NCBI RefSeq assembly: GCF_049075655.1
Contig: NZ_CP157522.1
Span: forward strand, 576,001-640,000
Reading direction: 5' to 3'
From: Methanothermococcus sp. Ax23
Lineage (GTDB): Archaea; AGJL01; Methanococci; Methanococcales; Methanococcaceae
DNA length: 64,000 nt
Under the pieces are notes generated by a model that did not search any database, was not told where the DNA came from, and was given only the letters and a program-made list of their open reading frames with translations. The translations under genes were made by a program, and so were the position numbers. Position 1 is the stretch's first letter. Every line of letters starts with the position of its first letter. Shown here in pieces: positions 1 through 46,402 of the stretch.

Positions 1-774
1 TTTTATACATCTATCTCCAAATCTCTCAACATCTTTTAAAAACATTCCAAATTGAACATAATAGTTTATATCCTCTGATTTACATCCCCTATCTGAAATA
101 TTTTTCATAATTTCATCTAATTTTTTATGCAAGTTTTCCTCTAATTCATATATTTTAAAACTTATTTTTTTATTTTTTACCACATCCATGGCAATTATAA
201 ACATTTCTTTGATAATAGCAAATATTTCATCAACATTGTCGGATAAATAATCCTTTACCTCTAATCCATTTGTAATCTCTTCGGCAATATTTGATATATA
301 ATCTCCGCATCTTTCAATATTTGAAGCAATTAACGATAAAAGCATTGCCTGTTCCATTGGCAAATACTTTAAACTGTCCATTTTAATTGATAGGTGAATT
401 TCTTCTTCCATTTTATTTAATGTATAATCCTGAAAAATTATGCTCTTTGCATCCTCTAAATTGTGAGTTTTTAACGCATTAAATGCTTTATCCAAATTAT
501 ATAATACATTATTTCCCATCTTTTCAAACATTTCAATGATATTATTCAATGGCTTGTCAATGTCTTGATATACGCCAAGTTCAGACAACTTATCCATATT
601 AACAACATAAGGATGCATTACAACCCTTTTTTCTATCAAAGGCTTTAAAAGTTTTGCAACATACCTTCTACTTATATTAAGTTTTTGGGCTATCTCATCC
701 TGAGTCTCTGGTTCATCTTCAATTATAATCTTGATAATTGCCGCCAATGTGGCTTCTTTTCCCCTTAGCATCAT
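1..774 (-). CDS. PhoU-domain phosphate uptake regulator with N-terminal HTH (runs off window start)
   Basis: Not in ORF track. Manual translation from ATG 774/771: MMLRGKEATLAAIIKIIIEDEPETQDEIAQKLNISRRYVAKLLKPL (HTH), later IASNIERCGDYISNIAEEI (PhoU repeat motif). Confidence 0.75.
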   Translation of the reverse strand, partial: MMLRGKEATLAAIIKIIIEDEPETQDEIAQKLNISRRYVAKLLKPLIEKRVVMHPYVVNMDKLSELGVYQDIDKPLNNIIEMFEKMGNNVLYNLDKAFNALKTHNLEDAKSIIFQDYTLNKMEEEIHLSIKMDSLKYLPMEQAMLLSLIASNIERCGDYISNIAEEITNGLEVKDYLSDNVDEIFAIIKEMFIIAMDVVKNKKISFKIYELEENLHKKLDEIMKNISDRGCKSEDINYYVQFGMFLKDVERFGDRCIK

Positions 775-961
775 ACCACAGATTTTTATTTTAATTTTTA
801 ATCAATTTTTTAAATTAATTTTATAAATATATTGGATTTATTATATTTAGATTTGTATGATATATACTTCATATAACCACCTTTTTTGATATTAAATATT
901 ACTTAGGTATTCAAATAATATATTTTTAAGTAATCAAATAAAAAGTTTATTAACAGAAATG

Positions 962-969
962 TTTATATG
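962..969 (+). promoter_or_regulatory. TATA box (TTTATATG) with A-rich BRE, upstream of candidate ncRNA
   Basis: About 30 nt upstream of the GC-richer structured segment starting at 992; no + strand ORF follows. Confidence 0.5.
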
Positions 970-991
970 TGAGTTAATCATATTGTTTAAT

Positions 992-1215
992 GTCCAGCTC
1001 TCATCAACTTCAACTTAAACTTTAAACGCTCCATTGACATCTGCATGGAATATTTTTTTAAGCAACTCCCGAGCTGTTCCCTTATAGAACAGTAGGGAGG
1101 ATGGACTGTCCCATAATAATACGGGAGCGGGTGTCGATGATAAAGGTATTCAAAATATATCGGATATAATTACATGAAACTTATGGTATATTTTAAATAT
1201 CTTTTGAGATACCTT
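992..1215 (+). ncRNA. Orphan TnpB omega-RNA-like structured RNA containing an inverted tnpB fragment
   Basis: Pairings GTCCA/TGGAC, CTCCCG/CGGGAG, CTGTTC/GAACAG and AAGGTAT-TCAAAA/TTTTGA-G-ATACCTT; shares AAGCAAYTCCC, CGATGA and ATGAAACTTAT with the region downstream of tnpB. Confidence 0.5.
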
Positions 1216-1256
1216 ATTATTCAGTTCAATATACATCCATAAAACCAATACAATAA

Positions 1257-2027
1257 TTATTGGTGGTTATATGATTTAAGCACTTCATCTTTTAGTTTAT
1301 CAACTATTTGTTTTTTATATTCTAAAAATTCCACAGTATTTCTCTTCCTAGGTCTATCTAAACTAATATCCACAATATCCTTTACTTTTCCCGGTCTTGC
1401 AGTCATTATAATTACTCTATCTGATAAATAAACTGCTTCTTCAACACTGTGAGTTATAAAAACTACGGTTTTTTTATCTTTTTCCCATATCTTTAAAAGT
1501 TCATTTTGCAATATTGTTCTTGTTTGGGTATCCAGAGCTCCGAAAGGTTCGTCCATCAGCACAATTTTTGGGTCATTTGCAAGGGTTCTTGCAATTGCCA
1601 CCCTCTGTTGCATTCCTCCACTGAGCTCATATGGGTACGCATCTTCAAAACCTTCCAAACCTATCATTTTTATAAACTTTCTTGCTACTTCATCCCTTTC
1701 TGCCTTTGGAACTCCTTTTATTTCCAAGCCGAAACCCACATTTTCCAAAACAGTTCTCCAAGGTAGCAAGGTATATTGCTGAAACACCATGCCCCGTTCT
1801 GCGTCGGGTTTTTCGATTTTTCTTCCTTCAATAAGTATCTCTCCAGAAGTGGGTTTTTCAAGCCCTGCAATCATCCTCAATATTGTGGATTTTCCGCACC
1901 CACTTGGTCCCACAATAGATAAAAATTCGTTGTTTCTAACTTCAAAATTTACATTATCTACTGCTAAAACTTCCTTTTTCTCCGTGATAAATTTCTTAAC
2001 AACATTTTTAATTTCCAATATCGCCAT
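1257..2027 (-). CDS. ABC transporter ATP-binding protein (nitrate/sulfonate/bicarbonate type)
   Basis: Walker A GPSGCGKST, LSGGMQQR signature, MDEPF; start moved to ATG 2027 behind GGTG SD. Confidence 0.93.
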   Translation of the reverse strand: MAILEIKNVVKKFITEKKEVLAVDNVNFEVRNNEFLSIVGPSGCGKSTILRMIAGLEKPTSGEILIEGRKIEKPDAERGMVFQQYTLLPWRTVLENVGFGLEIKGVPKAERDEVARKFIKMIGLEGFEDAYPYELSGGMQQRVAIARTLANDPKIVLMDEPFGALDTQTRTILQNELLKIWEKDKKTVVFITHSVEEAVYLSDRVIIMTARPGKVKDIVDISLDRPRKRNTVEFLEYKKQIVDKLKDEVLKSYNHQ

Positions 2028-2094
2028 AAAAACACCAATTAGCATTTTTTAATGCAGCAAATAAAATATATAAAATAAATATAAATTATAAACT

Positions 2095-9715: not shown

Positions 9716-9751
9716 AATATCACCAAAATTATTAAGTTAGGTCATGCAATT

Positions 9752-9911
9752 GGTTTCAAATGTTTCAAAGTATATCATTTGATAATTAAACTAACCAATT
9801 GTTTTATAAGTTTCATCGTTGGTTTCGTTGCCGTCCCCAACTCGACTTAATAGATGTGACCCGCACCCTCCTATCCCTCCGTCTCTATTAAAGAGAGTTT
9901 GGGAATTGCTT
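9752..9911 (-). ncRNA. Putative omega-RNA scaffold downstream of tnpB
   Basis: GC-richer non-coding segment between tnpB stop and element end; TTCCCAA/TTGGGGA pairing, TCTCT-TTAAT-AGAGA hairpin, CAATTGGTT/AACCAATTG stem. Confidence 0.55.
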
Positions 9912-9969
9912 ACGAAGTAAGAGAGCTACGAAAACCGCAGGTTTTTGTTTAATCGCTTACTAAATCTTA

Positions 9970-11160
9970 CTAAATATATACTTTTACAGGATGAGTTGGT
10001 AATTTACACAAATCTATCCCTTTAAAAGCATTATCAACCACTTTTCTCATAATATTGTAAGCACCATTAACATCAGCATTTACAACCCATCCTTTTAATG
10101 TTTTAAACAATCCTCTACAAAACCTCTTACCTGCGTATTCTTTCTTTTTGCCTATTTCTTCATTATCAAAGAATGAACATTTAGATGTGTAGCTTTCCTC
10201 TATTAGTACCACTTTAATACCAACCTCTTCTGCCTTATAAACAATTTTATCAATTAATGTCTTAAATGGTATTAAAGTGAAAGTTTGATTATTTTTCTTA
10301 CCTAAACTTACTTCCTGCTTCCAATCATCATTGTATCCAATGATGATTTTAGAAACTTTATTCTTAACGCAGTAATTAACTACAAATCTACTTGCCTTAT
10401 GTATCCAATCACTGACTTTAAAGTTTCTCTTGGTTATCACCTTTTTTAGTTTCTTACCTGATTTTATACCTTGTTTATCGTAAATAGATTTTAGGTTGGA
10501 AACAATTTTATTGAAAAACTGGTTAATAGATTTAATCCCTTTCCCATTGTCTTTAATGATAATCGGTTTATCACCAAAATTATTTGTCATTGTAATAATG
10601 TTTTTCATTCCTAAGTCGATGGATATTATTTTGTTATCATTTAGTTCCATAATTATAGGTTCTTTCTCGTAAATAATTTCTATTTTATAACCTCCTAATG
10701 TTGGTATTAATCTGACTTCCCTGATGTTAGTATCGTCGTTTAATCGTGTATCTACTGTTAAATTTATTTTCTTTGGAAATCTTAATTTTCCATCTTTTAT
10801 TTTACATTGTTGGTTTGTGAAAACCAACATAAAAATACCATCTTTTGGTTTAAAGGACGGTGGTTTTGGTTTTGCTTTAAACTTATTTGAATTGTTCCTG
10901 TATTTTTTTAAAGCTTTGAAATATGATTTCCAATTTCTACTGACTATTTTTAGTATCTGCTGTGCTGATTGTGTTGGTAGTTCTTTGTAGTTCTCACTGT
11001 CTTTTAGTAGTTTATTCAGGTCATTATATAATAGTAATTTATTTTCTTTTAGATGTTGTTTTATTAAGTATGTTGCTTGGTTGTATAGATTCTTTGATAT
11101 ATGGGAGTAATAGTTTAAGGTTGGATTTAGTGGAATATAGATTATTTCAGTTCTTTTCAT
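9970..11160 (-). CDS. tnpB: RNA-guided endonuclease TnpB (rearranged RuvC-II type)
   Basis: SKNLYN N-terminus, RuvC-I SIDLG, IIIGYN with downstream EESYTS, RuvC-III NADVNGAYNI. Confidence 0.93.
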   Translation of the reverse strand: MKRTEIIYIPLNPTLNYYSHISKNLYNQATYLIKQHLKENKLLLYNDLNKLLKDSENYKELPTQSAQQILKIVSRNWKSYFKALKKYRNNSNKFKAKPKPPSFKPKDGIFMLVFTNQQCKIKDGKLRFPKKINLTVDTRLNDDTNIREVRLIPTLGGYKIEIIYEKEPIIMELNDNKIISIDLGMKNIITMTNNFGDKPIIIKDNGKGIKSINQFFNKIVSNLKSIYDKQGIKSGKKLKKVITKRNFKVSDWIHKASRFVVNYCVKNKVSKIIIGYNDDWKQEVSLGKKNNQTFTLIPFKTLIDKIVYKAEEVGIKVVLIEESYTSKCSFFDNEEIGKKKEYAGKRFCRGLFKTLKGWVVNADVNGAYNIMRKVVDNAFKGIDLCKLPTHPVKVYI

Positions 11161-46315: not shown

Positions 46316-46402
46316 CGCGGAGGAAGGGATTTGAACCCTTGCGGGGCAAAGCCCCACCGGATTTCAAGTCCGGCGCCATAGTCCAGGCTCGACCACCTCC
46401 GC
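46316..46402 (-). tRNA. tRNA-Ser (anticodon TGA)
   Basis: Acceptor GCGGAGG/CCTCCGC + G discriminator, anticodon arm CCGGA-CTTGAAA-TCCGG, long variable arm GGGGC-TTT-GCCCC, T arm GGTTCAAATCC. Confidence 0.95.

Follow-up and report, generated by a model that had tools for sequence, protein, structure and literature searches.

TnpB systems are the ancestors of Cas12. Tang et al. reportedly described antisense RNAs against transposase mRNAs in the archaeon Sulfolobus in 2005. IS607 elements combine a serine TnpA, a TnpB and an omega-RNA encoded at their right end (Zedaveinyte et al. preprint, PMC10690162), and protein-less, PATE-like mini-elements of the IS200/IS605 group encode omega-RNAs that need TnpB in trans (Meers et al. 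preprint, PMC10055086). We analyzed a 64,000-nucleotide (nt) stretch of the genome of Methanothermococcus sp. Ax23 (positions 576,001 to 640,000 of contig NZ_CP157522.1), referred to as the window and numbered from its own first letter, in which an intergenic segment (962-1215) had been read from the sequence alone as a stand-alone omega-RNA-like gene joined to a piece antisense to the catalytic motif of tnpB. The flagged segment is the right, RNA-coding half of a protein-less mini-element, and not a lone host gene. The whole unit, 868-1215, is probably a non-autonomous, protein-less mini-derivative of an IS607-family transposon that had a serine-recombinase tnpA and a tnpB; it would carry an orphan omega-RNA, and the inverted tnpB fragment fused to that RNA, here called the arm, would be the scar of a rearrangement.

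The element lies in the region 775-1256, between two genes on the minus strand (open reading frames, ORFs, 1..774 and 1257..2045). No ORF of at least 40 amino acids (aa) was found in this region on either strand, in agreement with the earlier remark that the segment holds no protein gene, and no ORF conserved across its relatives was found on either strand of the element. BLAST of the window's own genome (G000), which covered 1.66 Mb and a 7.7-kb contig, found one other copy. The repeat unit is 345-348 nt long; the copy at window positions 868..1215 on the plus strand is called copy A (G000_A), and its counterpart at G000:C1:344643-344989 is called copy B (G000_B). The two copies are 99.1% identical over 348 nt, with a single indel and a single substitution (T/A at 1107) between them; their identity ends sharply at both edges, and their flanks are unrelated on either side. 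Copy A begins with a left end (LE; 871..955, plus strand) that starts ATATAAC and contains a conserved block at about 905-950 as well as a part that aligns to the tnpA promoter of a full-length element. A TATA-like box, TTTATATG, had been noted before and does stand at 961..968 on the plus strand, preceded by GAAA; a second candidate, TTTATTAA, at 946..953 on the same strand, aligns with the TATA box of the tnpA gene in genome G016, and either may be the promoter of the RNA. To the right follow a patch from the RuvC-II codons of tnpB in reverse orientation (991..1014, minus strand), the arm (1021..1059, minus strand) and, directly adjoining it, the omega-RNA scaffold (1060..1215, plus strand), with which the element ends on the right.

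The gene pair that flanks copy A is adjacent, with no element in between, in all 10 congeners that hold both genes (12 congeners were searched), and the gap between the aligned parts of the two genes is 10-138 nt in nine of these 10. In this lineage, therefore, the 348-nt unit has been inserted. The DNA between the two genes in the congeners is too diverged to be aligned, so neither the exact empty site nor a transposon-associated motif (TAM) is derivable from it; when the junctions were inspected by eye, a TT core fitted copies A and B, and did not fit the relatives G016 or G021:C113. The closest congener, G010, carries an unrelated 1072-nt insert at the same intergenic site. This insert of about 1.07 kb (L065 2319-3390; G010:C1:642260-643331) is apparently coding, and the site may be an insertion hotspot. 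The proposal of a domesticated, single-copy host gene gives way here to a mobile mini-element in two copies, with an insertion polymorphism and an IS607-type left end that is traced via G021:C113.

Two covariance models, R1 and R2, were built from the window sequence and its homologues, and the window scaffold (1060-1215) scores 189 bits with R1 and 151 bits with R2. A DNA search at the family level gave one homologue, the intergenic G021:C99 of another genus, and R2 gave 12 strong loci (79-184 bits) in 7 of the 40 genomes of the class; the phylum-level search with R2 covered the same 40 genomes and added nothing. A degenerate 17-letter motif of the scaffold core, run over metagenomes, matched 118 stretches, and none of the 80 that were taken as loci matched R2; the motif is unspecific. 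In three of the 12 loci (G016:C54, G029a and G023), a tnpB ORF ends within the start of the scaffold on the same strand. The scaffold thus lies at the 3′ end of tnpB, as an omega-RNA does; at the window locus itself, no tnpB adjoins it. The three ORFs are 474 aa (G016), 490 aa (G029a) and 493 aa (G023) long, the latter two counted from their MKVI start, and all have the OrfB_IS605 and Cas12f1-like TNB domains of Pfam. At G016:C54, a 200-aa ORF with Resolvase and HTH_17 domains, a tnpA gene, lies directly upstream of tnpB, and because this tnpA is of the serine-recombinase kind the parent type is IS607. The 5′ end of the G016 gene that is counted here as full-length may itself be damaged: at this locus (L061 834-900 / L050 1-120) the MKVITEF frame stops after 21 codons and the long ORF runs from a later Met.

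The remaining nine loci are protein-less. Seven of them were aligned, and six of the seven have the ATATAAC-type consensus at their left end; G021:C92 aligns poorly there. The left end of G021:C113 resembles the LE upstream of the G016 tnpA in the same orientation (71% over 76 nt, E 5e-6, BLAST). That of copy A gave no significant BLAST match to G016 and is linked to it transitively through G021:C113, with which copy A is colinear over its whole 348 nt, and copy A and G021:C113 can both be aligned with the G016 left end; scaffold and right end match the G016 element directly. A reading by eye of the left end as a reversed tnpB leader, with ribosome-binding site and ATG, was rejected, since BLAST puts the left end upstream of tnpA in plus orientation. 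One protein-less scaffold, at G027:C2:16772-16908 (L053 1501-1637), is shortened to 137 nt and sits on the small second contig of a three-contig genome; that contig may be an extrachromosomal element, which would be a possible route of spread.

The model fold of the scaffold comprises stem 1 (1066-1070/1095-1099, CUCCC with GGGAG), stem 2 (1073-1082/1086-1093), stem 3 (1109-1112/1123-1126, UCCC with GGGA), a closing helix (1129-1135/1208-1214) and, within the latter, a long hairpin (1141-1155/1191-1205). Across the 12 loci, 93.3% of the cells are paired and 22 of 39 pairs have changed on both sides, which none of 500 shuffles equalled, in an alignment that was fitted to the model and so favours the structure; slid controls reached at most 55% paired. 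An independent MAFFT/RNAalifold alignment of five sequences has 13 of the 39 pairs compensated. Covariation on the 12 loci supports stems 1 and 3, in place of the long-range CTCCCG/CGGGAG pair of the sequence-only reading. The 5′ stem that it had drawn between GTCCAGCTCTC (992-1002) and GGGAGGATGGAC (1095-1106) did not hold up either: it competes with stem 1, is absent in the homologue from the other genus, and begins upstream of the library contigs described below. Two G-U pairs, present in 12/12 and 11/12 loci, mark the plus strand as the RNA strand. Homology within the family ends at ACCT(T/A), the identity of copies A and B ends at 1215, and the library contigs diverge at 1214-1218; the scaffold thus stops where the element itself stops on the right, and beyond it, at the guide position, the flank varies. 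Rfam 15 gave no gathering-level match at the locus (the best sub-threshold hit, E 0.14, was unrelated), and six related loci gave none as well. The one gathering-level Rfam match in the window lies at 46316-46402 on the minus strand and is an 87-nt tRNA with a long variable arm (52 bits). In the full-length elements, codons of the KVGL region just after RuvC-III are complementary to the scaffold start (GCAACYTC) with letters that differ between G016 and G029a (L050 1395-1405 with 1507-1517; L052 1415-1435 with 1502-1522), and the two may form a long-range helix in the full-length omega-RNA precursor.

Translation of the reverse complement of 1021-1059 gives KKIFHADVNGAFK, the RuvC-III motif of TnpB, as had been claimed, and the segment is truly derived from tnpB. 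Against the reversed tnpB genes of G016, G029a and G023, the arm of the G000 copies shows 84-86% identity across 32-36 nt, and the arm of G021:C113, 64 nt long, is 90.6% identical to the reversed tnpB of G023. The match of 1028-1046 to the tnpB gene in the window (10079-10061) is likewise as first described: 16 of the 19 nt agree, and each of the three mismatches falls on a third codon position. Of 3000 random 19-mers drawn from the window for comparison, 12 reach 16/19 against that gene. In the RuvC-II patch, which is present in the G000 copies only and reads VEVDESWT on the minus strand, GTCCAGCTCTCATCAACTTC is the reverse complement of the tnpB codons for EVDESWT. These seven residues are identical to those of the G016 TnpB, and the patch matches the reversed tnpB genes at 12/12 nt (G016), 17/19 (G029a) and 15/17 (G023). 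G021:C113 has native KVGLK codons in its place, and the shared letters AAGTTG suggest that the patch may have arisen by microhomology.

An inverted tnpB fragment occupies the same scaffold junction in three of the nine protein-less loci (G000_A, G000_B and G021:C113), so that the comparison of relatives called for earlier finds the arm not to be unique to this genome. Five others (G021:C99, G021:C92, G029_b, G029_c and G030) have a sense hairpin about 10-45 nt before the scaffold, at a distance of about 20 nt in the two G021 copies; it corresponds to the SMSG codons of the full-length genes, where it lies about 200 nt upstream, and the five are plain internal deletions. G027:C2 has neither arm nor sense hairpin upstream. 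In G021:C113 (L055 1447-1663), the arm and the first scaffold stems are like the G023/G029 type (87-91%) and the 3′ hairpin is nearly identical to that of the other G021 copies, a chimerism that suggests recombination among family members. The arm is best read as a rearrangement scar, and an inversion combined with a deletion would be its simplest origin; the proposal of a neutral inversion in a decaying element, which had been offered as the alternative to a function, describes this origin well, but the codon-position pattern discussed below speaks against plain neutral decay. The RuvC-III codons (L050 1345-1392) form a quasi-palindrome (CTCCAT ... ATGGAG) that could favour template switching and inversion. 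A programmed invertible segment was considered and rejected: in the three full-length elements, no suitably placed inverted repeats surround the segment from RuvC-III to the scaffold, and all that the check showed was a hairpin centred on the RuvC-III codons and the complementarity between KVGL codons and scaffold start. That the arm belongs to a micro-ORF on the minus strand was rejected as well, there being no ATG in the frames and the parts upstream of the motif being unrelated between G000 and G021:C113. A conserved pairing of the arm with the scaffold was also rejected; a 13-bp helix with 1126-1138 appears in one fold of the G000 sequence, is lost with other 5′ ends, is absent in G021:C113 and competes with a covarying helix.

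G000 holds 12 full-length tnpB genes of at least three kinds, and a 13th locus is a short tnpB fragment. No cognate tnpB was found in this genome: the best resident genes reach 31-35% identity to the cognate family, within which identities are 59-61%; with the G023 protein as query, none was found in G021 or G027. The sequence-only reading had compared the segment with the tnpB gene of the window (ORF 9970-11160, minus strand) and with the DNA downstream of that gene. This local TnpB has the same domains as the cognate family, OrfB_IS605 and Cas12f1-like TNB, and the parallel between the two RNA regions is real: the 3′ flank of the local gene (9727..9919, minus strand) follows the overall plan of the window element in that it starts with AAGCAAYTCCC, forms two stems in its 5′ part and a long hairpin in its 3′ part, and has an end of ACCT type, and the exact ATGAAACTTAT occurs both at 1174-1184 and downstream of the local tnpB, as stated. 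The relationship is nevertheless distant. The protein has only 31-33% identity to the cognate family. With R2 the flank scores 25.3 bits (E 0.007 genome-wide, 3e-6 locally), where true members reach 79-184 bits; good alignment is confined to its first two stems, the rest having diverged, and the homologous region runs to 9727 rather than to 9806 as had been supposed. The local tnpB is a cousin and not the parent of the mini-element; the parent belongs to a different TnpB family, absent here.

Sequences of the element also occur in four runs on vent samples from three studies that are labelled metatranscriptomic (X1, X2, X3 and X10), together over 1008..1214. X1 has a 186-nt contig over 1008-1193 with no differences, X2 and X3 each have a 181-nt contig over 1014-1200 that is folded back at the long hairpin, and X10 covers 1074-1214 with the copy-B letter at 1107. 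RNA-labelled libraries thus contain arm and scaffold together, in one unit of about 190 nt. Where the contigs diverge, at 1214-1218, they continue into two or more other flanks, in keeping with an element that sits in several genomic contexts in nature. The stretches 500-869 and 1425-1600 have no cover in the four runs, and X2 and X3 have nothing beyond 1014-1200; this was counted neither way. The contigs suggest that the RNA is made in this genome, and the TATA-like boxes at 946-953 and 961-968 would be suitably placed for a start at about 985-1010. To judge from the G-U pairs of the adjoining scaffold, it would be the antisense strand of the arm that is transcribed.

Taken as a derivative of an IS607-family transposon, the element keeps the left end with the tnpA promoter region and a complete right end, the omega-RNA scaffold, and has lost nearly all of the coding DNA between them; what is left of it is the remnant of about 40 nt of inverted tnpB (RuvC-III) that is joined to the beginning of the scaffold, to which this genome alone adds the reversed RuvC-II patch of about 20 nt. 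The promoter in the left end would drive a plus-strand RNA of about 200-225 nt, from about 990-1008 to at least 1214, that consists of arm and scaffold. Such an RNA would work only with a TnpB supplied in trans, which it would be expected to bind and to guide in the cutting of sites that lack the element, with retention or copying of the mini-element as the outcome, and a TnpA acting in trans would mobilize it. The cognate TnpB family being absent here, the RNA would be an orphan, and the inverted arm would be carried along by the element family as a scar.

Several observations weigh against this account, and some of them speak for a function of the arm. The selfish guide function cannot act now in G000, G021 or G027, since all three lack the cognate TnpB; even so, the RNA structure remains intact. 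Of serine recombinases, G000 has only two homologues of the IS607 TnpA, at G000:C1:46775-47275 and 1511913-1512461, that are just 37-39% identical to the G016 TnpA, and no Y1 transposase (Y1_Tnp) was found in this genome, which leaves the source of the second copy unexplained; neither the junctions nor the congener sites define a target-site signature. The library contigs give neither strand, ends nor level of the RNA, and DNA carry-over is possible. Finally, the arm is the best-conserved segment between copy A and G021:C113 (25/32, as compared with 61/83 in the left end, 50/75 and 43/73 in parts of the scaffold and 31/57 in the spacer). All seven arm differences, over the 11 codons of IFHADVNGAF(N/K), fall at third codon positions, as do all four arm-specific states among five sequences; under uniform codon positions the chances of this are (1/3)^7 and (1/3)^4. 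Change at third positions only fits a neutral scar of single origin poorly, and the arms look, on this pattern, like further alleles of the coding gene. The cause may be repeated capture or conversion from unsampled tnpB alleles, or selection for a match to coding targets; the visible chimerism of G021:C113 speaks for the former. Under the latter, the RNA would be bifunctional, with a TnpB-binding scaffold and an arm antisense to the most conserved part of tnpB mRNA, the RuvC-III codons (the full-length omega-RNA precursor contains these codons in its 5′ part as well), and it would repress or compete with full-length elements or bring TnpB to its own message, as a parasite or a regulator. Besides the strong conservation and the third positions, where the arm behaves as if tracking coding targets, such a role would fit the inclusion of the arm, from 1008 on, in the stretch seen in RNA libraries, the retention of the arm-scaffold junction in a second genus despite about 22-46% divergence elsewhere in the element, and the acquisition by G000 of a second antisense patch, against RuvC-II codons. 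The predicted duplex with the local tnpB mRNA (T1) has -31.7 kcal/mol as against -25.3 +/- 2.9 for shuffled arms (2/100 as good), and that with T2 has -29.7 kcal/mol (6/100 as good). For 10 of the 12 full-length resident tnpB genes, and for the short fragment at the 13th locus, the arm pairs no better than shuffled arms, however, and the best target is missing in the genomes where the arm occurs. Pairing with resident genes is interrupted, at 16/19 with the local tnpB, and its longest run is about 11 bp (counted by hand, one G-U allowed). The search proposed earlier for a tnpB fully complementary to the arm turned up no resident copy, and BLAST of 962-1215 against the genome gave no tnpB match at E up to 10, the only long match being copy B. 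Six of the nine protein-less copies do without the arm, five of them with the sense hairpin instead, so that the arm is dispensable for persistence; the sample comprises two lineages only, no arm-scaffold pairing is conserved, and the third-position pattern could stem from the capture or conversion just mentioned. The antisense idea is for these reasons a minority possibility, and we consider a functional arm unlikely, though worth a test. The stronger claim that arm-bearing mini-elements form a distinct class of 'anti-TnpB' RNA genes, whose arms selection keeps matched to the codons of the TnpB catalytic motif, is more doubtful again; such RNAs could silence full-length elements, compete with these or redirect TnpB onto them, and copy A might add a guide against an unrelated insertion sequence (IS) with a DDE transposase.

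That last idea derives from the flank at the guide position (1216..1260, plus strand). Its first 18 nt recur exactly at three loci, and at 17/18 in five more, within a 935-nt IS, where they are the antisense strand of transposase codons (DDE_Tnp_1, Pfam); the IS has eight copies (e.g. G000:C1:1324905-1325839), 90-99.9% identical, with the transposase split over two frames. Chance matches of this length would number about 0.001 in the genome, by an estimate from base composition. With the 16-20 nt after 1215 as guide, the copy-A RNA could have been co-opted by a resident TnpB, for instance that of ORF 9970-11160, whose own distantly related scaffold has similar first stems, and the result would be a conflict between transposons or host control of an IS. 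The flank can be read more soberly as a decayed IS fragment that touches the element, the guide-target pair being the bold reading: weaker similarity to the IS continues past the 18 nt, for about 27 nt (14/1000 shuffles as good), while the left flank of copy A has no similarity to the IS (473/1000 shuffles as good). Several family members end ACCTTAT, so the first two of the 18 nt may belong to the element, and copy B has no such match in its flank; copy B lies 46 nt from a full copy of the 935-nt IS. No TAM is known, the contigs do not establish RNA past 1215, an active nuclease against eight genomic sites would be self-damaging, and the local TnpB is as remote from the cognate family as stated above. 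A co-opted guide in trans is accordingly a long shot. Chance resemblance in AT-rich intergenic DNA would account for some of the pairings first proposed and for the reversed leader-like similarity, which are typical of such DNA, and it is refuted as an explanation of the locus by a 99% identical second copy, by R2 homologues of 79-184 bits in six other genomes, by strong covariation and by exact TnpB motifs of 6-8 residues; we give it next to no credence. The derivation of 868-1215 from an IS607-family transposon, with the arm as a scar, remains the probable explanation.

On this explanation, the locus adds an archaeal example of IS607 type to the protein-less omega-RNA mini-elements known from IS200/IS605, and it defines an omega-RNA family outside Rfam 15. 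Mini-elements persist with their RNA structure intact, and without the nuclease that they should need, in at least three genomes, which raises the question of what keeps them. An arm that diverges like coding sequence though it lies outside any gene is a testable hint of an interaction between orphan guide RNAs and tnpB transcripts or genes; if orphan guide RNAs did act on tnpB, regulation or conflict inside TnpB systems would gain a new layer. The portions of the literature consulted, with supplementary element lists outside their scope, mention neither an omega-RNA fused to an inverted tnpB fragment nor this RNA family in Methanococcales-type genomes.

With the archaeal antisense RNAs reportedly described by Tang et al., the window element would share a non-coding RNA that has a segment complementary to a transposon gene. 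Here, however, the antisense segment is relocated, inverted and fused to a scaffold rather than lying opposite its target, and the genome has no fully complementary target. With IS607 elements, the G016 relative shares the Resolvase-type tnpA, the tnpB and the scaffold that overlaps the tnpB 3′ end, whereas both genes are missing from the window copy; a group I intron is not involved, and core dinucleotide and TAM are not definable here. Another likeness is to the PATE-like IS200/IS605 elements: both have no protein gene, conserved ends, several copies, and a right-end omega-RNA that would depend on a TnpB encoded elsewhere. The window element differs in that its parent is of IS607 type, with a serine-recombinase tnpA and not a Y1 transposase, that its host is an archaeon, that the cognate TnpB is absent, and that an inverted fragment of tnpB is fused 5′ of its scaffold.

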